IMG/VR virus record: IMGVR_UViG_3300005573_000200
Coordinates: 1-35,251 of that record
Strand: one strand, 5' to 3'
Source of the DNA: a virus
Lineage: Duplodnaviria > Caudoviricetes
DNA: 35,251 nt
This document shows, piece after piece, positions 15,204-33,162 of this stretch. Below the pieces are notes generated by a model that was given only the letters and a program-made list of their open reading frames with translations, searched no databases and was not told the origin of the DNA. The position numbers and the translations under genes were made by a program. Numbering within the stretch: position 1 is the first letter of the stretch; every line of letters starts with the position of its first letter.

Positions 15204-15442
15204 ATAGCACCCCAATCAGTAATTGTTTCAAGTTTATCAAGCAATTCTTGTTTTTCTTCTTTTTTCTCCTTGATGGATGCTTCAATTTCTTCCAGCTTTT
15301 TGAGGCATTCTTCATCATCATTGATAGAAAACTCTCTCTTCCATCGAGAACGAATGTCATCAGTAAGAGCTGATGCTTTGATGTTCTCTTCCTTCATCTT
15401 TGCAATTTTCTGCTTGATTGCTTCGAATGTTCTTGTGTCCAT
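15200..15442 (-). CDS. Small coiled-coil protein within the SbcCD cluster
   Basis: 80 aa Lys/Glu-rich heptads; RBS ggagga. Confidence 0.7.
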   Translation of the reverse strand: MDTRTFEAIKQKIAKMKEENIKASALTDDIRSRWKREFSINDDEECLKKLEEIEASIKEKKEEKQELLDKLETITDWGAI

Positions 15443-17939: not shown

Positions 17940-19286
17940 TTATTTCATAAGAGGAACAAGCTTTTTTATTCGTTCAATATTCTTATCCAAATCTATTTCT
18001 GCTGCCCGTTTCAATCCTTTCGTTTTGCATATTAAACATGCTTCACCAGTATAATCTTTATCATCATCAGCTTCCATTATGCTTTTGCAATATGGGCACA
18101 TCCATTTCCGAAGATGAGCTTTGATATATTGTGTAATATCTTCAACTGGGTTTACTGTTTCAACAAATAATTTCCCACCATGATTTTCTTCTACAACAAA
18201 GCAAGCAATTGTTGCAAGGTATCTATCGGTTATTCTTTGAATAACTAATGATGATTGCTTTGGATAATCATAGCCTTGCTTTCGTATAAGTTTCTTGATG
18301 TCAGTATAAGGAATTTCAGTGATTGTTCCGTGGTCAGTTGTGTAAATTGTTTTTCCACATAATCTCCATGCTGAGATAAAGTTCTTTTTGTAGTAAATAT
18401 GCACTTTTTCTGAAAGCACACCATTGAAACTTACAACAGTATTATCATTCTTTGTATACGGATGTGGAATTTCATCCCAAAGTTTTTCCCATGTTTCAAT
18501 ACCATAATCATGTGGGTTTACAACCATCCCTTTGTATGCTTCTTTCAGTTTTGCTTCAGTAAATCGTTCTTTATTATCAGGAAACCCAAAATCACAGCCA
18601 GCAAGAAAGATAGTGCCATAGCCAAGCATGTCAGCAACAAATAGTTGCATTGGCGGTGAACATGCAAACAATGCAAATTCAGTTCGTATGAGAAATCTGA
18701 ATTGTGGATAGCGTATTCCCTGTCCAGTATCTTCACGTTTTGTATACATACTTTTCAATGTATCTTTATAGAATGAGTGCTCTTTCCCATTACTTTGAAT
18801 GTAAAGAAGCAGTTCATTCGGCCATTTCTCAATTAAATCTGGATATACTGTTGGTGTAGCAACCAGTTTTGTATTTGTTTTTGACCAATCAACATCTTCA
18901 ATTTCACTATACATACAGAATGGGTCAAGGGCAACAATATGAGTGGGTATAATGCCGTGTCGTACAAGTGTTACTGCATGACTTGTAGTACAGAATATTC
19001 CACCTTTCCAGTCCTTCAAATACTTTATGCTTTTATCAAGTGAAGGCCCAGAACCAATAATAATTGCTGGCGGTTTTTCTTTTCCAATACCAACTGCTTT
19101 TGGTTCATCTGCAATATCTCTTGCACGACCTTCACTTATTGCTGTAACAATAGGTTGCCAATTTGTTGCTGCATTCAATAATTCATGGATAAGTTGCATC
19201 CTCATAGTTACATCATTATACTGAGATGAATTGAGTTTTTCACTTGCCTCATCTGGAAGATTCACAATATCAGATTGCTCACTCAT
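17940..19286 (-). CDS. Maf (motility accessory factor)/MptE-like DUF115 domain glycosyltransferase with C-terminal zinc ribbon
   Basis: AIIIGSGPSL, LVRHGIIPTHIVALDP and LGYGTIFLAGCDFGF are hallmark MAF_flag10/DUF115 motifs; C-terminal CPYC...CLIC. Confidence 0.82.
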   Translation of the reverse strand: MSEQSDIVNLPDEASEKLNSSQYNDVTMRMQLIHELLNAATNWQPIVTAISEGRARDIADEPKAVGIGKEKPPAIIIGSGPSLDKSIKYLKDWKGGIFCTTSHAVTLVRHGIIPTHIVALDPFCMYSEIEDVDWSKTNTKLVATPTVYPDLIEKWPNELLLYIQSNGKEHSFYKDTLKSMYTKREDTGQGIRYPQFRFLIRTEFALFACSPPMQLFVADMLGYGTIFLAGCDFGFPDNKERFTEAKLKEAYKGMVVNPHDYGIETWEKLWDEIPHPYTKNDNTVVSFNGVLSEKVHIYYKKNFISAWRLCGKTIYTTDHGTITEIPYTDIKKLIRKQGYDYPKQSSLVIQRITDRYLATIACFVVEENHGGKLFVETVNPVEDITQYIKAHLRKWMCPYCKSIMEADDDKDYTGEACLICKTKGLKRAAEIDLDKNIERIKKLVPLMK

Positions 19287-19650
19287 TAGTATATTCTCCT
19301 TTCCAATTTAGAAATGCTTTTATTTGTCTTTGAAGTATTGAAACTTGATGGTCAAAATCTTTTCCTCTTTCTATATAAAAATGACGAATATGAATATTTT
19401 TTGCAAGATAGTTTTCTATTCTGCAACCAGCAGAAAGTTTCCATCCAGGCAAAAATAATACTAGGTCAGCTTTCATCATTTCAGCAATACATGCTTTCAT
19501 TGATTTTTCCCATGACCAATCAAACCCACATGCTCTTGTTGGGTTAAAACAAGAATGCCCATATGATTCTATTATTTCTTGTGTAGCAGCAAACAATGGA
19601 ATGTTATGATTTTCCACATTTGTTATGGGTGCAGAAATGTAGACATACAT
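19279..19650 (-). CDS. DUF4406 / nucleoside 2-deoxyribosyltransferase-like protein
   Basis: VYISAPIT, FNP, ADLVLFLPGWKLSAGCRIE pattern. Confidence 0.82.
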   Translation of the reverse strand: MYVYISAPITNVENHNIPLFAATQEIIESYGHSCFNPTRACGFDWSWEKSMKACIAEMMKADLVLFLPGWKLSAGCRIENYLAKNIHIRHFYIERGKDFDHQVSILQRQIKAFLNWKGEYTNE

Positions 19651-19662
19651 ATTCTATCTTCC

Positions 19663-20499
19663 TTATTGCTGATTGCTATTTCCTGCATATTTTGTTTTAA
19701 TCTGTTGCATACTCTCATCTTTCCACAATGGAACATACCCATAGATTCTTGAGTTTCTTCCCTTTAATATCATCTTTTCCATCAATGCTTCACATACTTC
19801 AAAGTCATGCGGGTAGTCTATCTCAAAGCATTGCCAATCTTCAATAGGAAAGAGATTCCACTTTATCTTTTTATCGACTGGTTTTGTATCAATCTCAATA
19901 TCAGTTTGGGGATTTTTCGACCAAGTATTGAAGTAGTAATCACGAGTTCCTACTGAAGTTCCACCACCTAATTTTGAATACTTCCAGAACTTATCGGCTA
20001 TCTGCATCTGTGCTTGATACAAGTCTCCAAGGCTTTGTGTTTGAAACCTATCATAGTATGAACCTTTTACATGCTTTAAAATAAATGTTTCCTTGAATGG
20101 TGCTGCATCAGTCAAATAGTCAAGTTGGTTCTCTTTGAATACTTCAATCATTCTATCAAGCTGGCCTGGCTTTCGTAGTGGTGAAGTGGGAAGTAATGTA
20201 ACGAGTATATCTGGCTTCATGCCATAGTTTGCTTCTATAATGTTCAGTGCATGAAGAAACGGCACTCCAGCGGTAATGCCATTATCCCATACTGGCCGCA
20301 TAATTACTTCCACTCCATAGAATTTTCCAATCTCAGCATATGCTTCTGAATCTGTTGTTAGAAACACAGCATCAATTTCATGTGATGTTTGTGCTTGAAT
20401 AATTGACCAAGCAAGCAATGGTACATTGCATAATAGCCTACCATTTTTGTTTGGTGTTCGTGTACTTCCACCTCGTGCTGTTACAATTGCTATTGTCAT
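19663..20499 (-). CDS. neuA: Acylneuraminate cytidylyltransferase (CMP-nonulosonic acid synthetase, NeuA/PseF family)
   Basis: ARGGSTRTPNKN, TTDS, RP, LLPTSPLR and EIDYPHDF motifs. Confidence 0.88.
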   Translation of the reverse strand: MTIAIVTARGGSTRTPNKNGRLLCNVPLLAWSIIQAQTSHEIDAVFLTTDSEAYAEIGKFYGVEVIMRPVWDNGITAGVPFLHALNIIEANYGMKPDILVTLLPTSPLRKPGQLDRMIEVFKENQLDYLTDAAPFKETFILKHVKGSYYDRFQTQSLGDLYQAQMQIADKFWKYSKLGGGTSVGTRDYYFNTWSKNPQTDIEIDTKPVDKKIKWNLFPIEDWQCFEIDYPHDFEVCEALMEKMILKGRNSRIYGYVPLWKDESMQQIKTKYAGNSNQQ

Positions 20500-20501
20500 A
20501 G

Positions 20502-21038
20502 TTATTCTCCTTTCTCTTTTGAACGTACTGCTAATGCAGCTTTTTTCATATCATCATAGCCAATTATCTCACGAATCAAGTCAGCTTGAAATTCGAGTGC
20601 TTTCTTCAAATCACCTGATGCCAATGCTACATGCCATGATACAGAATAAGCCACAAATAGAGCATCAAACTCTAAATCAGCAACAAGTGGAACAAATGAC
20701 TCTAAACTTTCTTTTGTTTTAGTAGTTACTGTGTATGCCCATAGCATTGTATCTTTCAATTCTTCTTTTGTCGTCTTTCCTTCAAGATAGTTTTCTGTTT
20801 CTATTACTGCTGCTTTTGTTCTGATGTCATGGATATAATCCCATGCTACAGTATTATTTTTATATGGTGTTTTTCGTATGCACTCACATGCAAACTTTCT
20901 TAACTTGTGGTCATCATGGTAATCACCTTTTTCAAGTATCCACAGGAACCAATCAGAACGATTGCACTCTTTCCACAGCACATCTAAATCATCTGTTGAG
21001 TGCCAGAAGGTATTTCCATTCATACAAAGATTTATCAT
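20502..21038 (-). CDS. Hypothetical phage helical protein
   Basis: Likely ATG at 21038; RSDWFLWIL...LRKFACEC...GKTTKEEL pattern resembles a recurrent phage hypothetical family (from memory, unsearched). Confidence 0.6.
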   Translation of the reverse strand: MINLCMNGNTFWHSTDDLDVLWKECNRSDWFLWILEKGDYHDDHKLRKFACECIRKTPYKNNTVAWDYIHDIRTKAAVIETENYLEGKTTKEELKDTMLWAYTVTTKTKESLESFVPLVADLEFDALFVAYSVSWHVALASGDLKKALEFQADLIREIIGYDDMKKAALAVRSKEKGE

Positions 21039-21042
21039 ATTT

Positions 21043-21453
21043 CTAAGCCTCTTTAATATGATTATTATCATAAAGAGTAGTATATACACTTCTTACTATA
21101 TAAGAAAATGTATATGCAAGCCTCTCTTCTGATTTTCCACATTCTGTTCCATAGTATGTTCTTTTCTTTGCTACAAATCGTTCATATGCAAAAGCAGCAT
21201 GTAAACATTCGTGAGCAACAATACTAGCTACAAGACATTCCTCATTCAGAAACATATAGCCATATTGCTTTCTATCAAGATGCAATATTGGTGAAAACAT
21301 GCCAAGTGTATTGGAAAAATCCTTTTTCTTTAATCTACTGCTTTTGAATATGGCATCAATATTTTCTCTCATTAGTTCTGGGGTTTTACTTACATGAAGC
21401 TCAAAGTAATACTTAGCATCTTCATCAAAAATCTTGTATACTGCTGTACTCAT
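21043..21453 (-). CDS. HExxH-containing putative zinc metallopeptidase-like protein
   Basis: VAHECLHAA followed by a downstream EERLAY glutamate. Confidence 0.6.
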   Translation of the reverse strand: MSTAVYKIFDEDAKYYFELHVSKTPELMRENIDAIFKSSRLKKKDFSNTLGMFSPILHLDRKQYGYMFLNEECLVASIVAHECLHAAFAYERFVAKKRTYYGTECGKSEERLAYTFSYIVRSVYTTLYDNNHIKEA

Positions 21454-22025
21454 AATTTACTCAATGCTTTACTATATGTTTCAGGCCAATGTTGCTTGAT
21501 ACTCAATTTATGTTGTTCCCCAATCAGTAAATGTAAACCTGGATTATCTACATATCCAAGAATCTTTGGTGGCAGATGCACTACAGGGTCTCCATATGTT
21601 TGCACATTTACAATTTCTATATTTGGTGCAATTCTAAGTTGCTTAATCCAAGCTACACGAGGAGTTGCAAAAGTAATAACCTTAACTGATGCTCGTATCA
21701 AATCACAAACTTCTGTCGTAGCAATAAGTGCAAAGGCTCCACCACAAGAATATCCGCTTATGATTGCAGGTAAGTCCGCTCTAAATCCTATATTGTTGAA
21801 CGCATGATAAAATGCTTTATAGTAACCACCATGATACCAAGACTGAGGCCAGATATTAAAATCCATTTTCCAATCTACTATCTCAACAGAACCTTGGAAG
21901 TCAATATACTTTACCCCATCAATTATCTGTGAGCGGAATGTAATCCGATCACCATCCGCCTGCTGCCAGCCGTCCGGACGCATCAACCGTACCCATGCAT
22001 CTTTGACTTCTTGCACTGTTATCAT
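21450..22025 (-). CDS. Lipase class 3-like alpha/beta hydrolase
   Basis: FQGS, nucleophile elbow GYSCGG, TFATPRV, GDPVVHLP and C-terminal His (QHW). Confidence 0.82.
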   Translation of the reverse strand: MITVQEVKDAWVRLMRPDGWQQADGDRITFRSQIIDGVKYIDFQGSVEIVDWKMDFNIWPQSWYHGGYYKAFYHAFNNIGFRADLPAIISGYSCGGAFALIATTEVCDLIRASVKVITFATPRVAWIKQLRIAPNIEIVNVQTYGDPVVHLPPKILGYVDNPGLHLLIGEQHKLSIKQHWPETYSKALSKL

Positions 22026-22321
22026 ACTGTCTCCTTATCTTTCCAAGCCAGATAATGTTTTCCTCTCACGATTAGTTCCCTTGGCTCTTTGCCCAAATTA
22101 CAAAACCTATCACGTGCAACCCCAAGCCATTCAGCTGCCCCAGTTATACCTTGAAACCGCTTGATACCATGTTCTGAAGAAATGCAAACAACTGATGGCT
22201 TATGCCCACCATGATGGCCGCTCAATGCTTCCCGCCGTGGCTTTGACCGGTCGTTGGTCAGTAGCCGCCACACAGCATCATCACGGGACGAATCATTCGG
22301 AGCAATCGCCATTTCAGTCAT
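22022..22321 (-). CDS. Hypothetical protein, possible NUMOD1-like DNA-binding C-terminus
   Basis: Likely ATG at 22321 (MTEMAI); KPSVVCI...FQGITGAAEWLGV. Confidence 0.45.
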   Translation of the reverse strand: MTEMAIAPNDSSRDDAVWRLLTNDRSKPRREALSGHHGGHKPSVVCISSEHGIKRFQGITGAAEWLGVARDRFCNLGKEPRELIVRGKHYLAWKDKETV

Positions 22322-22694
22322 TTTGTTCACCTGCATAATTTTGTATTTCATCTGCGATTGCATCAATGAAAGCATTATCATTAAGTATATTATCATATGA
22401 AACTTTTATAATGTAATTTATGCTATCAATAAATCGTTTTATTATACTAGCTGTATTTACAATAGAAACTTCTGTGGAAAATATTATAGAACCATCATCT
22501 TCATGTGTAAAAGTAGCAATTCCTGCTACAAGGTGTTTGTTTTTTTCTAGGTAATTAAATATAAGTTCAGTATCAAGTGTTTTTATAAATGTAATGTTAA
22601 TTGTAACCTTGTTTGGTTGAGTAGATAATATGGTAACATGCCCTTCCAAATCATCTGTAAATTTCTTTTTAAATTCATACATTACCTGTTTCAT
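22314..22694 (-). CDS. Hypothetical protein
   Basis: 126 aa, RBS gaggagg, overlaps neighbours. Confidence 0.55.
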   Translation of the reverse strand: MKQVMYEFKKKFTDDLEGHVTILSTQPNKVTINITFIKTLDTELIFNYLEKNKHLVAGIATFTHEDDGSIIFSTEVSIVNTASIIKRFIDSINYIIKVSYDNILNDNAFIDAIADEIQNYAGEQND

Positions 22695-22900
22695 TCTTTT
22701 ACCTCCTCATTCCAGCATTGCTCACATGTTACCCAACGGCATCCAATTGTTTCCATATCTTTCATTTGCTCTGTTTCTGTATCAAGTTCAGGCCACATAA
22801 TATCAAAGCCTCCGGGGCACGTTCGTTTTATAATTTCATTTTTAGAAAAACATTCTGCTAATATGGGATAATTTTTAAATAATACTTCGATTCGTGTCAT
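22691..22900 (-). CDS. Small Cys4 zinc-finger protein, paralog 1
   Basis: MTRIE...CPGGF...IGCRWVTCEQCWNEE; likely ATG at 22900. Confidence 0.7.
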   Translation of the reverse strand: MTRIEVLFKNYPILAECFSKNEIIKRTCPGGFDIMWPELDTETEQMKDMETIGCRWVTCEQCWNEEVKE

Positions 22901-23079
22901 TCTTTTGCCTCTGCGTTCCAGCATTGCTCACACGTGATTCCACGACACCCAATAATTTTGTTGTCTTTGGATAATGCCGTTATCTCGTCTAATAGTGGCT
23001 CGTTCTTTAAAAAATCTCCAGGGCAAGATTGCAAAAGCATTTTATTGCATTCATTCATGGCTTTTTCAATCCGTGTCAT
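22897..23079 (-). CDS. Small Cys4 zinc-finger protein, paralog 2
   Basis: MTRIE...CPGDF...IGCRGITCEQCWNAE. Confidence 0.7.
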   Translation of the reverse strand: MTRIEKAMNECNKMLLQSCPGDFLKNEPLLDEITALSKDNKIIGCRGITCEQCWNAEAKE

Positions 23080-23230
23080 CGTCTACCTCGTCATCATCTG
23101 ATAAAAAATCAATGATTTCTCCAGTACCATGACAGTATTCGCACTCGTTCCACCATTCTTTTGTAGTGCCATCTTCAAGATGTTCGATGTATAATTGGAC
23201 TTTTGAACCTTCACACCAAGGACATATCAT
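23066..23230 (-). CDS. 54-aa DnaJ-type zinc finger microprotein (not on ORF track)
   Basis: Hand translation MICPWCEGSK...ECEYCHGTGEIIDFLSDDDEVDDDTD; RBS aaggaggt. Confidence 0.7.
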   Translation of the reverse strand: MICPWCEGSKVQLYIEHLEDGTTKEWWNECEYCHGTGEIIDFLSDDDEVDDDTD

Positions 23231-23409
23231 TATTCCACCTCCTTAACTGGAAGTATTTCTACCAAGATTGTAGAACCACCAAAGTCAACATTTGCCTTTT
23301 GCAGTATCCATGCAATAGTCTTGCTATCATCAACCGTTAGCACTTTTGTGCCGACGTATGAGCTGTAACCATCGGAAAATACATTTTTGACAACTACAGC
23401 TACTTTCAT
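23230..23409 (-). CDS. 59-aa hypothetical protein (not on ORF track)
   Basis: Hand translation MKVAVVVKNVFSDGYSSYVG...LPVKEVE; RBS gagg; exactly fills the gap with overlapping start/stop. Confidence 0.6.
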   Translation of the reverse strand: MKVAVVVKNVFSDGYSSYVGTKVLTVDDSKTIAWILQKANVDFGGSTILVEILPVKEVE

Positions 23410-23594
23410 TCCTCTGCCTCCTTATTGCACGCCTCGTCGAATTTGGCCTGCTCGTATGCCTGCCATTCCTCACGGGTCATCTGTGCCACACGGTAGCGTG
23501 CCTCTGCATGACTTTCATCTTCCTCCGACGGTGGAGGTGAGAAAAACACTTTCAGGTGTGATAGAAATCGATAAATCCATGATGCTTTATTCAT
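23406..23594 (-). CDS. Hypothetical protein
   Basis: 62 aa, RBS aaggagg, coupled to neighbours. Confidence 0.55.
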   Translation of the reverse strand: MNKASWIYRFLSHLKVFFSPPPSEEDESHAEARYRVAQMTREEWQAYEQAKFDEACNKEAEE

Positions 23595-23810
23595 TTATCC
23601 CTCCTTCTTGAAAACTACAGTGAACATGCTTTCTGGGCACTCGTGAACCTCTCCCCACATATCAATAAAGTACAGCCTCCCATCTTCAGTGATAATAAAA
23701 GTGCTGTCCTTTAAACTAATCTCCCAGCCAGGTTCATCAATCGTTATTGATGACAGTTTATCAACTTCTTTACCTGTTGCGTTGTTAATTACAACAAATT
23801 TTGGTAACAT
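23595..23810 (-). CDS. Hypothetical protein, paralog of 24057..24278
   Basis: Likely ATG at 23810 (MLPKFVVINNATGKEVD...EDGRLYFIDMWG...CP). Confidence 0.65.
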   Translation of the reverse strand: MLPKFVVINNATGKEVDKLSSITIDEPGWEISLKDSTFIITEDGRLYFIDMWGEVHECPESMFTVVFKKEG

Positions 23811-24057
23811 TTGCTTGCCCCTCCTTTTTGGCAGAAACATGATTTTCAGCACGCATCCATTTTGTCCATCCAGAACTATCCTCGTTTATAAACCGTTCCC
23901 TCTTCCAGATTTCGCCTGTTTCACGACTTATTACATACACAGCATCACTGCCAATAGCTATCCTCAGGCTATTGGCAATCCTTTTTGCACCGATAATGCT
24001 TTTTGCCTCAACGTTAAATATTTTCTCGTTTGCAAACGCAATAATAAATTTTTGCAT
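23785..24057 (-). CDS. Hypothetical protein
   Basis: 90 aa, RBS aaggaggt. Confidence 0.55.
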   Translation of the reverse strand: MQKFIIAFANEKIFNVEAKSIIGAKRIANSLRIAIGSDAVYVISRETGEIWKRERFINEDSSGWTKWMRAENHVSAKKEGQANVTKICCN

Positions 24058-24278
24058 TATTGACCTCCTTCGTTGAAAACAATGCTGAACCGGTCATCTG
24101 GGCAGTAAGCCACTCCACCGCACTCATCTACCAAGAGCAACGTACCGTCATCTTCAAGCGCAAAGCCCTCTATATCCATCCACATAAGCCCTTTAGCCCA
24201 ATCTTCAGTTTTTGCGATTGTGTACTCATCTGCTTCTTTGCCGGTTAGATTATCTATAACTATAAATGTTGGTAGCAT
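24057..24278 (-). CDS. Hypothetical protein, paralog of 23595..23810
   Basis: MLPTFIVIDNLTGKEAD...DDGTLLLVDECG...CP; RBS aggagg. Confidence 0.65.
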   Translation of the reverse strand: MLPTFIVIDNLTGKEADEYTIAKTEDWAKGLMWMDIEGFALEDDGTLLLVDECGGVAYCPDDRFSIVFNEGGQ

Positions 24279-24458
24279 TCACTGCCTCCTTTTATGCATG
24301 GATTTTAAAGCCTTATCAAGGCTCTTCTCAATATGATGCCATCTCCAATCGTCATAGGAATCAAGCTTATCCTCTTCTTTCTCCTCTATTTCCTCCCTGT
24401 TTTCCCGTTCCAGTGGTGGGTCAGGATTATCCAATAAGCCACAATCATCATATACCAT
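24279..24458 (-). CDS. 59-aa acidic hypothetical protein (not on ORF track)
   Basis: Hand translation MVYDDCGLLDNPDPPLERENREEIEEKEE...KRRQ; follows the promoter motif and RBS aaggaagg. Confidence 0.6.
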   Translation of the reverse strand: MVYDDCGLLDNPDPPLERENREEIEEKEEDKLDSYDDWRWHHIEKSLDKALKSMHKRRQ

Positions 24459-24677
24459 TATGTACCTTCCTTATATACTATATTATATCACATTTTTTCA
24501 TTCTTTTACTGCTCCAGCCAAATTTTCTATAAAATATTTGTTTGCAAGCAGAAATAAAGCCACAATCATCATATACCATTATGTACCTTCCTTATATACT
24601 ATATTATATCACATTTTTTCATTCTTTTACTGCTCCAGCCAAATTTTCTATAAAATATTTGTTTGCAAGCAGAAATA
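24436..24677. repeat. Perfect 121-bp tandem duplication
   Basis: 24436-24556 is identical to 24557-24677; contains the permease 3' end, promoter motif, RBS and first codons of the next gene. Confidence 0.95.
24477..24494 (-). promoter_or_regulatory. Extended -10 promoter motif (second copy at 24598-24615)
   Basis: AATGTGATATAATATAGT, identical to 17451-17468. Confidence 0.75.
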
Positions 24678-25440
24678 TCATAACTAATGGGAATAGCAAC
24701 AGCACACTTGCTGCAAATGCTTTCCCAATAGGGTTCACATATGAATCGGCATTTTGCCTAAACATAGCAAGACGCATAAGCCCAACAAGCAGTGTTTGCT
24801 TTTCAGCATCTTGCAGTACAAGCATTTGCCATATGTAGTCCTGCAATGAAGCTATACCAGAAAACAATGCTAATGTTGCAACAAGCGGTTTGCTGATAGG
24901 TACAACAATCAGTCGAAGTATCTGAAACTCACTTGCTCCATCCATTCGTGCTGATTCAATCAATGATTTAGGAATAGTATCAAAATAATTCCTTGCAAGA
25001 TACATGTTGATTGGTGAAAACACTAAAGGAAAAATAACAGCAGAAAGTTCACCTTGTATGTTGAGTTTCTTGATAATAGTGTACCACGGAATGATAAGCG
25101 ATATTCTTGGTATCATCATTCCAATAAGTAGTACAACCCAAAGCTGTTTCTTGAACTTGAATGTATACTGGGAAAAAGCATATCCAGCAGTTATTGAAAC
25201 AAATGTTGAAAGAAACACAGTTGCAAACACTACAATAACTGTGTTCTTCAGCCAAACAACCGTGTTCATACTGATGAAATATTTGTAATTTGAAAGTGTA
25301 ACTTGTGGTGGAATGAAAGCAGGTGGCATCTTGATGAAGCCAGAAATATCTTGAAAACTGCCTTCAATCATCCAGTAGAGTGGAAGAAAGAGAAGTAATA
25401 GCAAAAGTGAAAGACTTATCTTTGTAAAAAGATGCTTCAT
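24619..25440 (-). CDS. Carbohydrate ABC transporter permease (MalG/UgpE-like)
   Basis: Six hydrophobic segments; FLPLYWMI, AGYAFS and EAA loop IPKSLIESARMDGASEFQI; likely ATG at 25440. Confidence 0.92.
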   Translation of the reverse strand: MKHLFTKISLSLLLLLLFLPLYWMIEGSFQDISGFIKMPPAFIPPQVTLSNYKYFISMNTVVWLKNTVIVVFATVFLSTFVSITAGYAFSQYTFKFKKQLWVVLLIGMMIPRISLIIPWYTIIKKLNIQGELSAVIFPLVFSPINMYLARNYFDTIPKSLIESARMDGASEFQILRLIVVPISKPLVATLALFSGIASLQDYIWQMLVLQDAEKQTLLVGLMRLAMFRQNADSYVNPIGKAFAASVLLLFPLVMIFLLANKYFIENLAGAVKE

Positions 25441-25613
25441 TCTTCTATTTCTTTGTTCCAGCACTGTTCACAAGTAATGCCACGACAACCTATCCTATTG
25501 CCATGTTCATCCTTCATCTCTGTTCTTTTATCAAAACGAACACCGTCATCAAAATAGTCGTCAGGGCAATGCAAAGTAAGATAATCTTGTATAAGTTGTT
25601 CAAGTTTTGTCAT
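25437..25613 (-). CDS. Small Cys4 zinc-finger protein, paralog 3
   Basis: MTKLE...CPDDYF...IGCRGITCEQCWNKE; likely ATG at 25613; stop overlaps the permease start. Confidence 0.7.
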   Translation of the reverse strand: MTKLEQLIQDYLTLHCPDDYFDDGVRFDKRTEMKDEHGNRIGCRGITCEQCWNKEIEE

Positions 25614-25797
25614 TATAATCCTTCTTTTTCCTTTTGCACCACAAAATCCCAAATAATGATGTACAATGGTATAACTTGCCATCTATTCTTTTTAATACAG
25701 GCATTGGGACAAAAAATGCCCTTAAACCAGACTTTATTCGTCCTATGGCAAATTCATCAAGCATAATTCTATACTTCACACCATTATGAGTTTTCAT
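25600..25797 (-). CDS. Hypothetical protein
   Basis: 65 aa basic ORF filling the gap with short overlaps. Confidence 0.45.
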   Translation of the reverse strand: MKTHNGVKYRIMLDEFAIGRIKSGLRAFFVPMPVLKRIDGKLYHCTSLFGILWCKRKKKDYNDKT

Positions 25798-26767
25798 TCC
25801 ACAACCTCAAACTTTGCTCTATTCTAAATTTAGATGATTTTGATGTGTGCCTTTTTATCAAGAAATCTTGAAAAGAGCTTTTCTTAAAAAAATCAACTTG
25901 GTTTGTATAAGAACAAATATCTATATAAAAAGGATTATATACACTACCCCAACAAGAAATATCTCTCATAACATATGGTAAACATTTATGATTTTTCAAA
26001 AAAATGATTCTTTGTACTGTTTCTCTAATAGACATATCAGGATGAACATATACAAAAAATCTTAATTGCCAATCTTTTGCCCATTTCAAAAGAGACAGTT
26101 TTTCCTCAATTATATCTTTGTATGCATATGAATCAAACGCAAAGGTATATTCACCCCAATAATTAAGTTCTGATAACAGTTTTGAATTTCTTTCATTCAG
26201 CAACCTAATATCAAGTCCTTGATTAAATTGACATTTTATTTTCTTATCAACCAACTCTTGCAATATCTGCTCGTGATCTGGAAAAGCTAGAATATTATTA
26301 TCAAGAAATTTTACTTGTTTATGCCTAACGATGTCATCTATATTGTTTACTTTATGAATGTAACCTTCCTTTTTCGGAACTTTACAAAAACTACAATTCC
26401 TTATACAACCTCTTGTAATGAATCCATATGATGTGTGATTGTTTGGGTATAAACTATAATCGGGTTCAAAATATTCTATTTCATCTGGTAGTACTGTAGT
26501 TAGATCAAAACCAGTCCCACCGAATATAATGTTTTTACCTTTTATATAAGGAGCATTACCATCAAAAACAACAGAGCAGTATACTATATCAAACTCATCA
26601 AGTAGCGTATGAGGAACATAATATGTGATTTTCTTTCTAGTAGGGTAGTATGGCAAGTTGCATTTATGAAGTATCACATCATCCCCCTTGCTTTTATGCC
26701 ACCCACCTAATTTCATTAGTGGCAGATTAGGTATAACTGAATCAGCATCAATTAACAATACTTTCAT
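25784..26767 (-). CDS. Radical SAM protein
   Basis: TRGCIRNCSFC (CxxxCxxC), LDNNILA and FNQGLDIRL; N-terminal IDAD...PNLPLMKL. Confidence 0.88.
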   Translation of the reverse strand: MKVLLIDADSVIPNLPLMKLGGWHKSKGDDVILHKCNLPYYPTRKKITYYVPHTLLDEFDIVYCSVVFDGNAPYIKGKNIIFGGTGFDLTTVLPDEIEYFEPDYSLYPNNHTSYGFITRGCIRNCSFCKVPKKEGYIHKVNNIDDIVRHKQVKFLDNNILAFPDHEQILQELVDKKIKCQFNQGLDIRLLNERNSKLLSELNYWGEYTFAFDSYAYKDIIEEKLSLLKWAKDWQLRFFVYVHPDMSIRETVQRIIFLKNHKCLPYVMRDISCWGSVYNPFYIDICSYTNQVDFFKKSSFQDFLIKRHTSKSSKFRIEQSLRLWNENS

Positions 26768-26784
26768 CAGTAGTTTTCTCCATT

Positions 26785-27618
26785 CTATACTTCATGCTCA
26801 ACCTTCCTTTTCAGGAGTGAAAGCACAACAACAACACAAAGCAAAAGCACACTTTCTGCTGACGCCATACCCCATTGTGATAGTTTGAATCCCATTGTAT
26901 AGATACAGAATGTTGGAGTATATGCATATTGCTGTGGCACAAGAGCATATATTGTTTCAAAAATTTGCAATGCATTTATCATTGCAAGCAAAGCAACAAG
27001 TGAAAGTGTGGGAAATATCATTGGCAATAGTATTTTCCATTTTATCTGCCGTTCACTTGCACCATCAATCATTGCCGCTTCAATGATACTTTTATCAATG
27101 CTCAGCAAGTTTGCAAGAATAATAATAACAAATGTTCCAAATGAGGAAACTACAACTACAAACACCACAACAGGAATTGCTGTTGCACTTTGCCCAAACC
27201 AGTTTACTTTATCAATGCCAACTAATGATAATAACCAATTTGCTACACCATTTGCTGAGAATATCCAGCGCCATACTTGTGCAATGATAATGCCTGCCGC
27301 TAATACTGGAATGTATACAAGTATTCGTGTGATATCCTGCCATCTTTTATTCAGCTTGAATACTGCGAGAGCAACAGTAACACTCATAAACAAATGCCCA
27401 AATGTTAGCAGAATAACATAGAAAATTGAGTTCTTCATTGACTGCAAGAACATCTCATTGCTGAAAAGTGCTTTGTAGTTATCTAATCCAACAAATGTAG
27501 ATGCTATGAAGTTTGTTTTGTAGAGGCTCATTCTGACAACTTCAAAGATAGGCCATCCAGTAAAAAGCAGAAAGAAAAGTAATGCTGGAAGAAGCAGAAT
27601 GAGTGAAGTTATCTTCAT
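26785..27618 (-). CDS. Carbohydrate ABC transporter permease (MalF/UgpA-like)
   Basis: LLLPALL, FVGLDNY, WRWIF and EAA loop EAAMIDGASERQ; six TM segments. Confidence 0.92.
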   Translation of the reverse strand: MKITSLILLLPALLFFLLFTGWPIFEVVRMSLYKTNFIASTFVGLDNYKALFSNEMFLQSMKNSIFYVILLTFGHLFMSVTVALAVFKLNKRWQDITRILVYIPVLAAGIIIAQVWRWIFSANGVANWLLSLVGIDKVNWFGQSATAIPVVVFVVVVSSFGTFVIIILANLLSIDKSIIEAAMIDGASERQIKWKILLPMIFPTLSLVALLAMINALQIFETIYALVPQQYAYTPTFCIYTMGFKLSQWGMASAESVLLLCVVVVLSLLKRKVEHEV

Positions 27619-27809
27619 ACCATTTTACGTTCTTTCATAACTACAATCTTATCACCAGGCTTCCAATCTGTATATAGTTTTCTATATATTTCAAGAAGTA
27701 TATTTTCAGCATCATTCTTATTGAATACTGAAGTCTGTGTTCCAATAATGCTGTTTTCATACACAGAAACTAATGCTATATCATGCTTTATTACAATTTC
27801 ATTTTCCAT
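27615..27809 (-). CDS. Hypothetical protein between SBP and permease
   Basis: 64 aa, RBS ggagg, stop overlaps the permease ATG. Confidence 0.55.
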   Translation of the reverse strand: MENEIVIKHDIALVSVYENSIIGTQTSVFNKNDAENILLEIYRKLYTDWKPGDKIVVMKERKMV

Positions 27810-27837
27810 AATTCATGCCTCCAAATAATAAAATAAG

Positions 27838-27872
27838 ATGGCTTGATACAGTATATTGCTGTACCAAGCCAT
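27838..27872 (-). terminator. Rho-independent terminator / stabilising hairpin after SBP gene
   Basis: Minus strand atggcttggtacagcaatatactgtatcaagccat followed by cttattttattatt. Confidence 0.7.
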
Positions 27873-27886
27873 AAGACGAATGGAAC

Positions 27887-29140
27887 TTATTTCTTTACTG
27901 AACTCAATGCTTTCTCAAACTTTTCAATAGCTTCCTTCGGAGTAAGTTTGAAAGTAAGTACCTGCTGAAGAATAGGAAACTGCATTGCACGTCTTTCAAC
28001 AAAGCGTGAATCAGTCAGCCCCACATCCTGTAGGCCATTCTTTGCTATAATATCAATAACCTGCTGTGTTTCTGCAAGCTGTGGCTTAGTAGCAACATCA
28101 GTTCTTGCTGAATATACTCCTATTTCCTTTGTGGCTGTTTCAAAGACTTTTGGTGAGTACAGATATTCAAGAAACTTTACTGCAACTTTATCAATATCAG
28201 TTCCAGTTTTATGAATTACTGCTACATTTCCATTGAAGTAAGTAGGCACTTTATCAACACCAGTAGCTCTTGGGAACGGCACATATTTTACTCTAAATGG
28301 TTTTGTAATAATGCCTTGCTTAATTGCAGATTCCCAATATGATGCCATCCAGTTTGGGAAAAATGCTGTTGCAGCAAGCTGTCCTGATGCCCACTGCATT
28401 ACATAGTCATCATCACACAGTGTTGCAGCATTTGGGGGAACATACTCATTCTTAACAAGTGTCTGGTAGAAAGCATATACTTTCTCACCACCATTCTTTG
28501 CAACAAGGGCAGTATCATAATCTCCATTCTCATACCATTTTACCCCAAATGTTGCATACCAGCCATTGATAAGATAATCACCAGACTGATTCGCAGCAAA
28601 CATTCCTGTTGCCCACTTCTTGCCTTTATACTTCTGTTTCACAAGTTCAGCCATCTTCAAAAAGTCATCAACAGTCCAGTTATCAGGAACTTTGTAACCA
28701 ATTTCATCCATAATATCAAGATTGATGCACATTCCCTGTGCTGAACCAAGCCCAGGCAAGCCAAGCACATTGCCATTCTTTGTATACATCTTCAGTGTTG
28801 TTGCATCCCACTTGTCCAAATCTTTGAATACACCATTCAGCGGAAGTGCAAAACCATCAACCATGTACTTGCTTGCTCTCACCATTGAATCATAGTAGAT
28901 ATTTGGTACATTTCCAGCGGCAAGCATAGCATCCATTGTCAGTGAACTTCCATCCGACAAATCAATCTGCAATACTTTGACTTTCACATTCGGAAAGTCT
29001 TTCTTGAGCTGTTCCTCAGCATAAGCAAAATCAGTAGTGTTACCAATTTTTGTTGGCCCCACTGACAGCACAGTAAGAGTTTGCCCAAATACTGCAATAC
29101 CAGCCATGAGCAACATTGCAAGAACAATTGCTTTCTTCAT
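27887..29140 (-). CDS. Carbohydrate ABC transporter substrate-binding protein (SBP family 1)
   Basis: Signal peptide MKKAIVLAMLLMAGIAVFG|Q; LAAGNVPNI, NLDIMDEIG, WTVDDFL and GQLAA patterns; 417 aa; RBS ggaggt. Confidence 0.9.
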   Translation of the reverse strand: MKKAIVLAMLLMAGIAVFGQTLTVLSVGPTKIGNTTDFAYAEEQLKKDFPNVKVKVLQIDLSDGSSLTMDAMLAAGNVPNIYYDSMVRASKYMVDGFALPLNGVFKDLDKWDATTLKMYTKNGNVLGLPGLGSAQGMCINLDIMDEIGYKVPDNWTVDDFLKMAELVKQKYKGKKWATGMFAANQSGDYLINGWYATFGVKWYENGDYDTALVAKNGGEKVYAFYQTLVKNEYVPPNAATLCDDDYVMQWASGQLAATAFFPNWMASYWESAIKQGIITKPFRVKYVPFPRATGVDKVPTYFNGNVAVIHKTGTDIDKVAVKFLEYLYSPKVFETATKEIGVYSARTDVATKPQLAETQQVIDIIAKNGLQDVGLTDSRFVERRAMQFPILQQVLTFKLTPKEAIEKFEKALSSVKK

Positions 29141-29174
29141 TTCAATAAACCTCCATAAAATGAAAAGATGTGCT

Positions 29175-29187
29175 TATTATATAACAG
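29175..29187 (-). promoter_or_regulatory. Putative promoter for SBP gene (TGTTATATAATA)
   Basis: Variant of the repeated -10 motif ~35 nt upstream of the ATG. Confidence 0.5.
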
Positions 29188-29229
29188 AATATGTTGAAAT
29201 TTTAAGTACTTTTATTTCAAATTACTTTA

Positions 29230-29238
29230 TGATATAAT
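29230..29238 (+). promoter_or_regulatory. Extended -10 promoter TGATATAAT, divergent from SBP promoter
   Basis: Consensus TGnTATAAT ending 7 nt before the first hairpin at 29246. Confidence 0.6.
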
Positions 29239-29245
29239 CTACAAT

Positions 29246-29405
29246 GAATCTGAACTGCACCATTGTGCAGGGTAGGATTCCCCAGGCTTATCAATTTTGA
29301 TTTGCCCAGTGATACTCATCTACCTATGGTAGAATGAGCTGAGGGGCTGGTTAACAGCCAGTTCCCTTGACTCTAGCTAGTATGTCTACTAGCTAGAGCC
29401 TTTCT
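29246..29405 (+). ncRNA. Putative structured non-coding RNA of unknown family
   Basis: Four to five back-to-back stem-loops in an ORF-free gap, with an upstream extended -10 and a terminal 12-bp perfect hairpin ctctagctagta/tactagctagag followed by cctttct. Confidence 0.55.
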
Positions 29406-29818
29406 ATGTGCAAATGCCCTATCGTTCCATATTCTTCTAATGGATAATATTCTTCAACTAAATTTGCTAACTCAATAATAGCTTCCTCAAATGTATCAGC
29501 CCCACAATCCAATCGAACATCATGGAAATGAACCCATTTACCACCAAGTGTTTTCTGAATATTTTCATCAGTTTCCTCATACCAAGGCCCAAATTCCAAC
29601 CAAACTTCCGTTTTTGTGTTTTTACTTTCATCATCATCTATTTTATGAGTAGCAGGGTTAACTTTTTGTACATCAATATTCAGAAGGTACTGGAAATCAC
29701 TAGACTCAATAGCTCCACCGTATATATGTTTGGTAGCTTCATACAAAGGCTTACTTATAAATGCTCCGTGTTCTACAAGATACCACCATGCTTCATAAAA
29801 ATCTGTAAATTTTTTCAT
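29393..29818 (-). CDS. Hypothetical phage protein
   Basis: 141 aa, RBS aaggaggt. Confidence 0.65.
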   Translation of the reverse strand: MKKFTDFYEAWWYLVEHGAFISKPLYEATKHIYGGAIESSDFQYLLNIDVQKVNPATHKIDDDESKNTKTEVWLEFGPWYEETDENIQKTLGGKWVHFHDVRLDCGADTFEEAIIELANLVEEYYPLEEYGTIGHLHIERL

Positions 29819-29843
29819 ACAATACCTCCTTAACCATCATCTT

Positions 29844-30101
29844 TTAACAGCTATTGACAATTTGCATAATTCTGCGTTCTGAAAGAGCATAGTTTTTTGC
29901 AAGATGCTTGTACACATCCATCTTGTTTTTTCCTGATGCAACAAGTTGTTCATACTCATTCTTTATTATGCTGTCTCGTTGCAACGGAAGTGGCTTATCT
30001 GGAATATAAATCTTCAAGCCACCAAGCAACTCACAGATTTCCTGCATCTTCTCCTTTCCAACAATGTTCTGTAGTATTGAACCTGCTGATGTTTCCTTCA
30101 T
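29844..30101 (-). CDS. Mor/C-family transcription activator-like protein
   Basis: LGGLKIYIP, RDSIIKNEY and HTH LAKNYALSERRIMQIV. Confidence 0.85.
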   Translation of the reverse strand: MKETSAGSILQNIVGKEKMQEICELLGGLKIYIPDKPLPLQRDSIIKNEYEQLVASGKNKMDVYKHLAKNYALSERRIMQIVNSC

Positions 30102-30104
30102 AAG

Positions 30105-30593
30105 CTATCCATCCTTTGCGATGCTTTTTGAAAATAATGTTTCAAATGTACTCCAAGCCATTGTAACTGTTGTTACTGGCAATGATTTTGTACGAATAAC
30201 AAGAAGCCAGTTTTCTTCATCAGCATATTTTCTTGCCTGCTCTACAAATGCATGAAAACTGATATTCTCACAACTTTTGCACTCAACTACAAATGGAAAC
30301 TTCTTCTTTGCTTCACCACGAAGGATAACATCTGCACCGCTTTGCCCCATCTCTCTTGAATGAATCTCACAATTATCATCATGCTGATTAAATTGCATAC
30401 CAAGCAACTGGGCAATACGTTCTGCAACCCAATACTGTAAGTTTCTGCCTTTTGATTTTGCACTTGAAGTCTTTATGGTAGTTTCAGATCGTTGTAACTT
30501 CTTTACGATACTTTCAGCAGATGCAACAGTACTCAATGAAGCTACTATGGTGTTACGTTCTTTATCGGTCAGATGTATCCATCGTGATGCCAT
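30105..30593 (-). CDS. Holliday junction resolvase-like PD-(D/E)xK nuclease
   Basis: SAKSKGRNLQ, GADVIL and VECK motifs; near the recombinase. Confidence 0.8.
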   Translation of the reverse strand: MASRWIHLTDKERNTIVASLSTVASAESIVKKLQRSETTIKTSSAKSKGRNLQYWVAERIAQLLGMQFNQHDDNCEIHSREMGQSGADVILRGEAKKKFPFVVECKSCENISFHAFVEQARKYADEENWLLVIRTKSLPVTTVTMAWSTFETLFSKSIAKDG

Positions 30594-30599
30594 ACATGC

Positions 30600-30860
30600 T
30601 CACTCCTTTGATGTCATTTTCAGAAGAATTGAATCCATGCCAATTGCTGCATACACATCAAGTAGCTTCTCGTTCTCCGTATTTGCTTTAAGTTCAGCAA
30701 TAGCCATTGAACTTGTTTTTCCAGTTTGTAAAATACTTATGTATTGCATCCATACTTCATACAGTGCATGTTCATCAACACCAAAATCTTCAATGATACT
30801 TATATCAGGCTGTACTTTCTCGGTCTGTTTGTTGCTACCGACTTCTCTATTGTTTCCCAT
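30600..30860 (-). CDS. Hypothetical protein
   Basis: 86 aa; GGAGG just before the ATG, which lies inside the recA-like 3' end (61-nt overlap). Confidence 0.5.
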   Translation of the reverse strand: MGNNREVGSNKQTEKVQPDISIIEDFGVDEHALYEVWMQYISILQTGKTSSMAIAELKANTENEKLLDVYAAIGMDSILLKMTSKE

Positions 30861-32026
30861 TTTTCCTCCACCCTTTTCTGAAGCTCTTTCTCCAGATGAT
30901 TGCTTTCAATAAATGAGATTAACTCATTCCGACCCATCTTTGCCATAAACTGTTGATTAAACTTATCTTTCAGCTTTTCATTGTTTGAAAGCCATTCAAC
31001 AACCTCACTTTTCTTCAATGTAGGCTTTACTGTTTTTCTATATTCCTCTTCAACACCATTCTCAATAAGAAATTGTTTTAGGTTTTCAAGATTCAGCTCC
31101 TTTCCATCCCATGATGCTTCTGCTCCTTTTACCAGCTCACCTTTATCTGTTCTAAAATCAAACAGATAATCTAAGTTTGTAGCAATGTCATCAACTCCAT
31201 AATCAAACTTCAAATCAAAGTATATTTCTCTGAATGGCCGTGGTGTTTTGCTCTTCGTTGTTTTTGCTTTGATAGTTGCACCTACTACAATTCCTTTTGC
31301 CTTTACTTTGTTGACCATTGCAAGCCACAATACGGTATGTGCATAAAAGTCCATTGCTTTACCACCAGTACGCACATATTTCTCAAAGCTCATAGGTTCA
31401 ACATTTTCTCTTACTTGTGAGATAATCACAAGTAAACAGTTTGTTTTTTCCAATATCCCAGCCATTTGTGGAAAGAACTCTTGGGAAAGATACTTTGCTT
31501 TTCCCATTCGATAAGAATTTTGCTTTGCCTCTTTTCCCTCCTGTGCTTTTTTGTAGTGTTCATCGGCCAACTCATCAAGCTCTTTTGATGTTAGCCCATC
31601 AAGTGAATCAACACCATAAATACCAACTTCATTTGGCTTCAACGATTCTGCAAAGCTCCGCACATTCACATACAATTCTTCAACAGTACTTGATTTTGTT
31701 CTTTCAGCACTATCTTGTGGCATAATTTCAAATCCATACAAATTTTTTGTATCGAATGTAAACCCGCTTTCGCAGTCATCATACACCCATTTGAAGTTCT
31801 TGCCATACCTGTAGTAGTTTGCTGCAATAAGCTCACACAAAAGAAAACTTTTTGAAGCGGCCTTATCACCCACAATGTTAATAATCTTCCCATATGGATA
31901 ACCATACCCAACACCACCACCTACACATAAATCAAGTAAAAATGAACCAGTTGGAGCATAAAATTGCTTTGGTTTTGTTTCTTCTGTGCCATTCATTATC
32001 ACATTCCTTATCTCATCGGTATTCAT
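30800..32026 (-). CDS. RecA/UvsX-like recombinase
   Basis: TGSFLLDL, GYPYGKIINIVG, Walker A variant GDKAASKS, VDSL, ISQVR, TGGKAMDFYA and YGVD. Confidence 0.9.
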   Translation of the reverse strand: MNTDEIRNVIMNGTEETKPKQFYAPTGSFLLDLCVGGGVGYGYPYGKIINIVGDKAASKSFLLCELIAANYYRYGKNFKWVYDDCESGFTFDTKNLYGFEIMPQDSAERTKSSTVEELYVNVRSFAESLKPNEVGIYGVDSLDGLTSKELDELADEHYKKAQEGKEAKQNSYRMGKAKYLSQEFFPQMAGILEKTNCLLVIISQVRENVEPMSFEKYVRTGGKAMDFYAHTVLWLAMVNKVKAKGIVVGATIKAKTTKSKTPRPFREIYFDLKFDYGVDDIATNLDYLFDFRTDKGELVKGAEASWDGKELNLENLKQFLIENGVEEEYRKTVKPTLKKSEVVEWLSNNEKLKDKFNQQFMAKMGRNELISFIESNHLEKELQKRVEEKWETIEKSVATNRPRKYSLI

Positions 32027-32041
32027 AGCTTTTGCATAATC

Positions 32042-32078
32042 TTGCTAGTAAGTACAATTATATTATACTTACTAGCAA
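32042..32078. promoter_or_regulatory. 13-bp inverted repeat overlapping a TATAAT between ssb and recA-like genes (operator or terminator)
   Basis: ttgctagtaagta (32042-32054) / tacttactagcaa (32066-32078); minus strand reads AGTATAATATAA across arm and loop. Confidence 0.6.
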
Positions 32079-32085
32079 AAAGATA

Positions 32086-33162
32086 CTATTTCTTCAGCTT
32101 TTTTGAAGCTCTGTAGCAATCAGAAAAAACTTCGCAATCATCACATTTTGGGTCAGTTTCACAATCAATTCCAAAGCGAAGCCCATATGGACATTTGTTA
32201 TCTTCAACTTCAACTGGTGCTTTCTTTTGCTTTGCTACAGGCTTCTCTTCATCTTCTTCAACTGGTGCTTTTTTTGGTTTTGCTACAGGCTTATCCTCAT
32301 CTTCATCATCTTCAACTGATGCTTTCTTTGGCTTTGTTACGGGTTTTTCATCTTCCTCCTCATCTTCCTCCTCCTCTTCTTCTTCCTCTTCCTCTTCTTC
32401 CTCAACTGCTACTTCATCTTTTGTTTCACCGTAGTCATCGTCCTCACCATAGAAAAGCTTCTCAATATCCTCATAAGAATGTACTACAAGAAATTCATCA
32501 AGGCTGAGAATATCTTTCTTCAGTGCCTTATCAAGTGGCTCTTCCCTATCCACAAACTTAAATGATTTAAACTCAAAATACTTCTTGCCAGCACCAAAGC
32601 TCTCTTCTGTTGCTCTAAACTGAACTGCTTTCCCATTCCTGAAGTCTACAAAATCAATCGCTTCATCTCCATCACTTGCTGCACCAGCTTCATCCATCAT
32701 TTCCTTATGAAAATTCTTGAAGCTTGCTTGAAAAATCTGTACACCAGCATTTGTATCATCTGCATCAACAATGTTGTAGAATACTCGATGAGAAGGATTC
32801 AGTTTTGATGCTTCATCTTTCTTTCCTTCTTCACGTAGTTTATCTGCCTGCTCGCAGATGGGGCATGGCTTTCCAAAATTGCGTTTGGGGCAAAGAATTT
32901 CAGCACCACTCGGCCCTACAAACTGATGAATCCAAATATCAAGTACAAAATCTTCATCACCTATTTCAGCATCCTTTGAACGAACCAAAGGATGATTCTT
33001 CGTTTTAATTGTATAAGGAAGAATGTTTATAGTATTACGCTTTGATGCTTTTGGCTTCCAAAATTTTACATCTTCTGGAAAGTTCAATGCTCTAGCTCTT
33101 GTTCCAGAACCTTTGTCCCTGTCATGATACCTCTTTTTCAGAATATCTCTCAAATTTGACAT
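32086..33162 (-). CDS. gp32-like single-stranded DNA-binding protein
   Basis: FWKP, INILPY, H..., CPKRNFGKPCPICE and RVFYNIVD; long acidic linker; lies between uvsY-like and recA-like genes. Confidence 0.78.
   Translation of the reverse strand: MSNLRDILKKRYHDRDKGSGTRARALNFPEDVKFWKPKASKRNTINILPYTIKTKNHPLVRSKDAEIGDEDFVLDIWIHQFVGPSGAEILCPKRNFGKPCPICEQADKLREEGKKDEASKLNPSHRVFYNIVDADDTNAGVQIFQASFKNFHKEMMDEAGAASDGDEAIDFVDFRNGKAVQFRATEESFGAGKKYFEFKSFKFVDREEPLDKALKKDILSLDEFLVVHSYEDIEKLFYGEDDDYGETKDEVAVEEEEEEEEEEEEEDEEEDEKPVTKPKKASVEDDEDEDKPVAKPKKAPVEEDEEKPVAKQKKAPVEVEDNKCPYGLRFGIDCETDPKCDDCEVFSDCYRASKKLKK
32202..32403 (-). repeat. Low-complexity poly-Glu tract and three EKPVxKxKKAxVE repeats in SSB
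   Basis: tcttcc/tcctcc runs; tcaactgRtgcttt occurs three times. Confidence 0.85.

Follow-up and report, generated by a model that had tools for sequence, protein, structure and literature searches.

A viral sugar importer lacking its own ATPase as the putative first step of a phage module for the import, activation and transfer of sialic-acid-type sugars

The window analyzed here is a 35,251-nt stretch of viral DNA (Duplodnaviria; Caudoviricetes; IMG/VR record IMGVR_UViG_3300005573_000200, positions 1 to 35,251), which makes up about 48% of an estimated tailed-phage genome and carries genes for a CUT1-type sugar ATP-binding cassette (ABC) importer, namely a solute-binding protein (SBP) and two permeases similar to MalF and MalG. 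We propose that this importer does not stand alone but forms the opening step of a conserved module of five phage genes (SBP, MalF, MalG, NeuA-like, Maf-like). The NeuA-like and Maf-like genes sit 4 kb downstream of the importer on the same strand and were absent from a first-pass annotation of this DNA. In the proposed pathway, the SBP and the permeases, together with a host ATPase, would import a sialic-acid-type nine-carbon sugar; the NeuA-like enzyme would use CTP to activate it to its CMP form; and the Maf-like transferase would place the sugar onto proteins, most probably the virion proteins of the phage itself. We regard this import-activate-transfer pathway as probable and the whole model with a virion acceptor as having about an even chance. 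Somewhat more tentatively, and at a little below even, we suggest that a widespread clade of phages from anaerobic habitats builds an importer into its host, powers it by the host ATPase, scavenges sialic-acid-type sugars and coats its virions by means of a Maf-type transferase, with relatives switching between import and synthesis in the same slot.

A search with the SBP yielded 25 viral loci, and 80 of 102 metagenome loci were kept (one locus being the window's own record), while only two short contigs from metagenome-assembled genomes (MAGs) were found among 185,579 prokaryote genomes in a pattern-limited search. With the window's own record excluded, 106 loci formed 67 SBP clusters at 90% identity, 45 of which were too short to judge, and MalF, MalG, NeuA and Maf follow the SBP in this order in all 22 clusters in which 5 kb or more of DNA lies downstream. 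In one locus (L001), stops and starts overlap from each of the five genes to the next. Two genomes, G001 (76,850 bp, complete, with direct terminal repeats) and G002 (67 kb, estimated complete), hold terminase, portal, capsid, tape measure and DNA polymerase genes, and in both, the complete module directly precedes the terminase genes. The median ratios of nonsynonymous to synonymous substitution (dN/dS) of close pairs across the five module genes were 0.11, 0.18, 0.07, 0.12 and 0.16, compared with 0.09 for RecA, from 46, 15, 9, 8 and 7 non-independent pairs retained by a filter of 0.03<dS<0.8 and dN<0.2. An earlier and looser pass (0.03<dS<1.2), in which the NeuA and Maf medians came to 0.56 and 0.48, respectively, was set aside, since it included saturated distant pairs. 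Thus, the homologues show purifying selection (0.07-0.18) and no neutral evolution, and the long residence in phages that the first-pass annotation had assumed is supported, as the family is phage-borne and its GC content matches that of phage core genes.

Neither the SBP nor the Maf had a match among 50,697 GenBank phages, and no close phage was found in INPHARED, where MalG matched at about 30% identity, the 20 matches listed being unannotated records. The host search returned scattered MAG labels, with no host emerging. A tyrosine integrase was absent from all five of the largest records, and phages with the module look lytic.

The best evidence on the nature of the cargo comes from relatives in which the importer is replaced. 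A search with a Maf alignment gave 32 loci, and among the 36 viral records examined, NeuB was present in three (G008, G009 and G010) and in none of the other 33, while the importer and NeuB were never found together. In G008 and the complete genome G009, the gene order is Rad50-C, methyltransferase, GT8, radical SAM, NeuB, B12-radical SAM and SIS, followed by NeuA, Maf and TerL, with an aminotransferase nearby. The slot of these NeuB genes, from Rad50-C to NeuA-Maf, is that of SBP-MalF-MalG in the complete genome G001, and the Mafs of G008 and G009 nest among those of importer phages (SH-aLRT 100 in a quick tree). Because NeuB genes fill the importer slot in these relatives, import and synthesis look interchangeable, which argues for the nonulosonate itself as the cargo. 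The clusters around NeuB are larger glycan-synthesis clusters (L138:1256-8962 in G008, L159:13343-17617 in G009) holding a class III aminotransferase, GT8, two radical SAM enzymes and SIS, with a UDP-galactopyranose mutase in G008, hinting at an unusual nonulosonate.

The relatives of the SBP point to a similar sugar class. Structure prediction, a check proposed with the first-pass annotation, gave a sugar-SBP fold, and a Foldseek search with the model singled out no ligand class. By sequence, the best matches in the Protein Data Bank (PDB) are six chains of the 9RSI series (2e-19), the next family following at 3e-12, and 9RSI in turn matches an SBP from S. agalactiae at 1.7e-219. The latter lies in a cluster with the order nanE-SBP-permease-yhcH-yesL-DHDPS(nanA-like)-ROK, and a relative from Subdoligranulum is likewise found upstream of two permeases and a DHDPS-family gene. 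The closest solved relative of the phage SBP is thus, as judged from sequence comparison, orthologous to a streptococcal nan-operon SBP, and the phage protein appears to be related to streptococcal sialic acid SBPs of the ST6/SatE type, a relation suggested by pairwise and profile comparison (best PDB and hhalign relative, about 22% identity). Two arginines invariant in the phage family, R88 and R384, align with arginines of the S. agalactiae SBP; we presume that they bind a carboxylate and take them to be the equivalents of Arg113 and Arg404, which bind N-acetylneuraminic acid (Neu5Ac) in pneumococcal SatA. A literature search found no paper naming 9RSI or its ligand. We therefore consider a sialic-acid-type nine-carbon sugar the probable cargo. 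Many of the farther SBP relatives carry a signal motif, FAxGxxE, whose likeness to spirochaetal signals is a lead only. A NanA-family lyase (DHDPS) was absent from all five of the largest records, where no linkage to nan catabolism was seen.

The two enzymes of the module would serve the activation and transfer steps. The NeuA/PseF-like CMP-nonulosonate synthetase (278 aa; 19663..20499, minus strand) has a CTP_transf_3 domain that is nearer to NeuA than to KdsB in profile comparison with structures (5e-33 vs 6e-10). The Maf-like glycosyltransferase (448 aa; 17940..19286, minus strand) belongs to PF01973/DUF115 and ends in a C-terminal CxxC...CxxC ribbon. Its predicted model (pLDDT, the predicted local distance difference test, of 90.4) has the GT-A fold of the DUF115/MAF_flag10 family and matches the Maf of PDB entry 5MU5 with a Z score of 19.6 and a root-mean-square deviation of 3.0 over 236 aligned residues. 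Two of its invariant residues, D121 and D232, line up with acidic residues of 5MU5 and are candidate counterparts of the experimentally tested Asp. The ESM Atlas cluster holding the PF01973 protein is 96% viral. Flagellin and flagellar families were absent among the annotated open reading frames (ORFs) of G001, G002 and G009, and the context of a flagellar locus was not seen there. In one further phage, a cytidylyltransferase and a Maf are fused in a single 687-aa ORF upstream of TerL (L149:110-2173), and its head module is different, with an HK97-type portal and protease.

The first-pass annotation had also stated that no MalK/MsmX-type ATPase lies in the window and had proposed that the importer either borrows or sequesters that of the host. 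The absence holds: no ABC_tran match exceeds the cut-off in the window, where the single weak match is the clamp loader, or in any of the 36 viral records, including three near-complete importer-bearing ones, and a cognate MalK-type ATPase was thus found in none of these records, four of which are near-complete. The five weak matches lie in frames of 310-312 aa, which are the clamp loader in G001, G002 and G009. The EAA loops, by which permeases bind the ATPase, are almost invariant: their Asp and Gly are kept in 53 of 54 and 54 of 54 MalF sequences and in 39 of 40 and 40 of 40 MalG sequences, respectively. That CUT1 importers share a multitask ATPase, even between species, is established according to the accessible part of PMC7658222, and ST6 sialic acid importers generally use a shared MsmK, according to that of PMC8461474. 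With the missing ATPase, the conserved EAA loops and the ST6 precedent as indirect support, we find it likely that the importer is powered by a borrowed host multitask ATPase. The other half of the proposal, sequestering, is not supported, because it leaves the conserved SBP and the link to NeuA and Maf unexplained. We also considered as a motor the split Rad50/SbcC, an ABC-superfamily DNA-repair ATPase encoded on the minus strand at 16355-17431 and 14556-15215, and rejected it, as it adjoins Mre11 and also occurs in NeuB phages. The N-terminal gene of this pair (16355-17431) and the C-terminal gene with the Walker B motif (14556-15215) flank Mre11 on both sides, and the same split is present in G001, G002 and G009.

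As for the acceptor, where the model is weak, a protein is almost as probable as the pathway itself, and the virion stands at roughly even chances. Virion proteins are favored because the head operon encloses the genes in two phages: the five genes of G051 all lie between a head-morphogenesis gene and scaffold-major capsid protein (MCP), and in G010, Maf, an aminotransferase, NeuB and NeuA lie between TerL and the portal gene. In most other phages, the module precedes TerS/TerL, and the lytic look of the genomes also speaks for the virion. A conserved protein of 120-135 aa with 20-35% Ser+Thr is encoded after the MCP in G001 (L113:8015-8404) and at 37 other loci; it has a weak phrog_24894 match and no solved relative and is a candidate decoration protein and glycan acceptor. 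The median Ser+Thr fraction of the post-MCP ORF is 0.27 in 31 clade proteins vs 0.14 in 23 outgroup proteins. Complex prediction for the G001 Maf (residues 15-385) and this protein scored 0.18, the mark being 0.32, which is no evidence either way. Phage precedent exists, as mycobacteriophages glycosylate their capsid and tail tube (Freeman 2023, as cited in the available parts of PMC11600133 and PMC12619734).

Several observations weigh against the model. Regarding the cargo, many sugar SBPs rank equal in Foldseek (TM 0.67-0.75, with a library that predates 9RSI), and the SBP shares just 22% identity with its streptococcal counterpart. Regarding the enzymes, the NeuA-like protein scores 72 bits against a curated PseF cut-off of 205.7 and its NeuA match is confined mostly to the N-terminal half, while the Maf-like protein scores 24 bits against a PseD cut-off of 670, and characterized Mafs modify flagellin, not virions, as far as the accessible portion of 10.1101/2023.12.03.569772 goes. 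Regarding the swap, the absence of an SBP match from the three NeuB records comes from a search without a positive control, completeness reaches 90% in only four of the 36 records, and G008 and G010 are fragments. Regarding the acceptor, the module of the window lies among middle genes, and there and in the rest of the L004 group it comes before Rad50/Mre11, away from the head genes; kinship is a confounder of the Ser/Thr richness of the post-MCP protein; and some outgroup phages in which no Maf was detected also have a Ser/Thr-rich protein (0.35 in L296; partial records), in a PF01973 genome search whose blanks are weak, since it overlooked one truncated Maf that the alignment search recovered. 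Finally, expression of the module was not seen in three RNA runs, in which only the radical SAM gene described below was covered closely.

The same pathway could operate with a host protein or surface structure as the acceptor, such as flagellin, pilin or a phage receptor, so that Maf would alter motility or block other phages. The known Mafs are flagellin glycosyltransferases, the match to 5MU5 agrees with this, and the module lies among middle genes in the window; nevertheless, the lack of an integrase in the five largest records leaves a short time for host remodeling, and the position inside the head operon in two phages also argues against it, making a host acceptor rather unlikely in our view. 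A transfer of the activated sugar to phage DNA, as a hypermodification against restriction, or to a small molecule is improbable. Phage glycosyltransferases can modify DNA (bioRxiv 10.1101/2023.12.21.572611, in its accessible part), the C-terminus of Maf is Zn-ribbon-like, and GT8 is also present in NeuB phages. On the other side, DNA becomes less likely because no thymidylate-synthase-fold hydroxymethylase was found in any of the five largest records (with positive controls), and the phages have C5 and N6/N4 methyltransferases of the ordinary kind.

Similarly improbable is a role of the PF01973 protein as an MptE-type pterin diphosphokinase, or as some other non-transferase, together with a sugar other than a nonulosonate, e.g., 3-deoxy-D-manno-octulosonic acid (Kdo) or a heptose acid. 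The Pfam family is named MptE-like, MptE is the second structural match of the model (Z 12.8, with GT29/GT42 sialyltransferases at 7-8), and KdsB models match the cytidylyltransferase weakly, but Maf scores higher, NeuB takes part in the swap, and the protein is constantly paired with a cytidylyltransferase and once fused to it. Slightly less probable still is that the genes have no relation to NeuA and Maf and encode a stand-alone sugar importer feeding the infected cell, or permeases by which the host ATPase is sequestered. In the window, the distance between the intact importer genes and NeuA is 4 kb, but linkage in all 22 clusters, the full overlap of the five genes in L001, the replacement of the importer by NeuB and the lack of a NanA lyase in the five largest records stand against this reading, which linkage and swap together largely refute.

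The linkage of the importer to phage genes is real. The plus strand of the window carries tail and lysis genes and the minus strand clamp loader, SSB, RecA and Rad50/Mre11 genes; permease, SBP, RecA and SSB are joined on one 5,873-nt contig (run X1), and a 24,020-nt contig from a separate study (X6) is colinear with window positions 20000-32237. Because these contigs carry the same joins, a chimeric assembly is ruled out, and the notion of a chimera or of host DNA in decay, for which one probable assembly slip nearby could be cited, has a negligible probability given the colinear contigs, the 25 viral loci, the complete genomes, dN/dS of 0.07-0.18 and the near absence from prokaryote genomes. 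The slip is an exact 121-nt tandem duplication over the 3′ end of MalG (24436..24677, no strand assigned), skipped in all four other assemblies and probably an artefact.

In the importer region, whose genes, promoter match and 14-bp hairpin lie on the minus strand, the first-pass annotation had described three intact genes in canonical order interrupted by four ORFs, both permease ATGs overlapping the stop of the preceding ORF, and a hairpin after the SBP gene, all of which stands. The SBP (417 aa; 27887..29140; PF01547/PF13416) is an SBP_bac_1 protein with an N-terminal hydrophobic signal lacking a lipobox, and the MalF/UgpA-like (277 aa; 26785..27618; six hydrophobic segments) and MalG/UgpE-like (273 aa; 24619..25440) permeases are BPD_transp_1 proteins (PF00528) with intact EAA loops; all frames are open, and the start of MalG is most likely ATG 25440 rather than the GTG chosen by the ORF caller. 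The 14-bp hairpin with its T-rich tail (27838..27872; z -3.65, as stable in none of 200 shuffles) likely sets an excess of SBP over the permeases. A sigma-70-like promoter match upstream of the SBP (29176..29205) is a consensus match only (10/12), and it is weak, given that the region holds 22 promoter-like sites vs 25.5 in its shuffles. In the intergenic region upstream of the SBP (29262-29398), there is a 12-bp hairpin (29371-29398), and three other assemblies skip a stretch of 84 nt.

The ORFs that break up the importer genes are variable passengers. They comprise a 64-aa ORF (27615..27809) whose stop overlaps the MalF ATG, as ATGA, and which has no BLAST match in other loci; a radical SAM gene (25784..26767; phrog_9298); a 65-aa ORF (25600..25797, from the ORF listing); and a Cys-rich ORF (25437..25613; 58 aa from ATG 25613) whose stop overlaps the MalG ATG in the same way. 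The last had been called a zinc-finger paralog; its paralogs at 22691-22924 and 22897-23079 are real, and we describe it simply as Cys-rich. A further passenger with a DUF4406 domain match lies between NeuA and Maf (19279..19650, minus strand). The gaps between module genes range across relatives from an overlap of a few bases to 2.5 kb, filled by unrelated ORFs, and close strains lack the radical SAM gene; therefore, the inserted ORFs vary freely. The radical SAM gene has a GC content of 0.30 vs 0.36-0.40, is flanked by a 13-nt direct repeat (26782-26794 / 25766-25778) at which it is skipped in X3, X5 and X6, and is a mobile cassette (25766-26794). It also occurs near-identical and standing alone in three wastewater or sludge RNA runs, and a homolog lies close to the DNA polymerase gene of G001. 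Downstream of MalG, 22300-24460 is a hypervariable run of small ORFs on the minus strand with many strain joints and two paralog sets, a Cys-rich GCRGITCEQCW family in three copies and the pair 23595-23852 and 24057-24278.

Among the related phages, G002 alone carries radical SAM, GTP cyclohydrolase I and QueC genes (L115:1139-4341), which suggests 7-deazaguanine DNA modification in this phage. Replicative polymerases differ even between close phages: G009 has PolIII-alpha (L162:1445-4159), while G001 (L110:15363-17966) and G002 have a family A polymerase with a domain like that of uracil-DNA glycosylase.

The model gives a multi-component viral ABC importer a purpose, namely to provide a sugar donor possibly not made by the host, and the module would be a compact five-gene kit for import, activation and transfer. 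If it is true, Maf enzymes reach beyond flagellin, nonulosonic acids join phage glycobiology, and the swap is a natural experiment on nonulosonate sources for microbes and viruses in sludge, groundwater, sediments and hot springs. Bacteria with Haemophilus-type scavenging take up sialic acid and use a CMP synthetase and a sialyltransferase for surface sialylation. The phage module shares this logic of import, activation and transfer with no de novo synthesis, but it is virus-encoded, with a CUT1 importer instead of TRAP or ST3 and a Maf-type enzyme instead of a lipooligosaccharide (LOS) sialyltransferase. Like ST6 SatEFG (pneumococcal SatABC/NanUVW), it has an SBP_bac_1 SBP and two permeases lacking an ATPase and shares the arginines at R88 and R384; unlike it, it is viral, is about 22% identical, has a signal peptide with no lipobox and is tied to NeuA and Maf rather than to NanA/NanK/NanE catabolism. 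With Maf flagellin systems (PDB 5MU5; 10.1101/2023.12.03.569772, accessible portion), it has in common the DUF115 GT-A fold and an adjoining CMP-nonulosonate synthetase, whereas the phage Maf is a single 450-aa form with a Cys ribbon, its donor would be imported or made by NeuB, and flagellar genes are not among the annotated ORFs. Mycobacteriophages also use phage-encoded glycosyltransferases for virion glycosylation, a modification that we only infer here; the enzyme family and donor class are different, and our phages would supply the donor through a membrane importer. A literature search, with subscription journals outside its coverage, found no description of such a phage module. Each part is of a known kind, and it is their union in a virus, with a seemingly borrowed ATPase and an apparent switch between import and synthesis, that is new.

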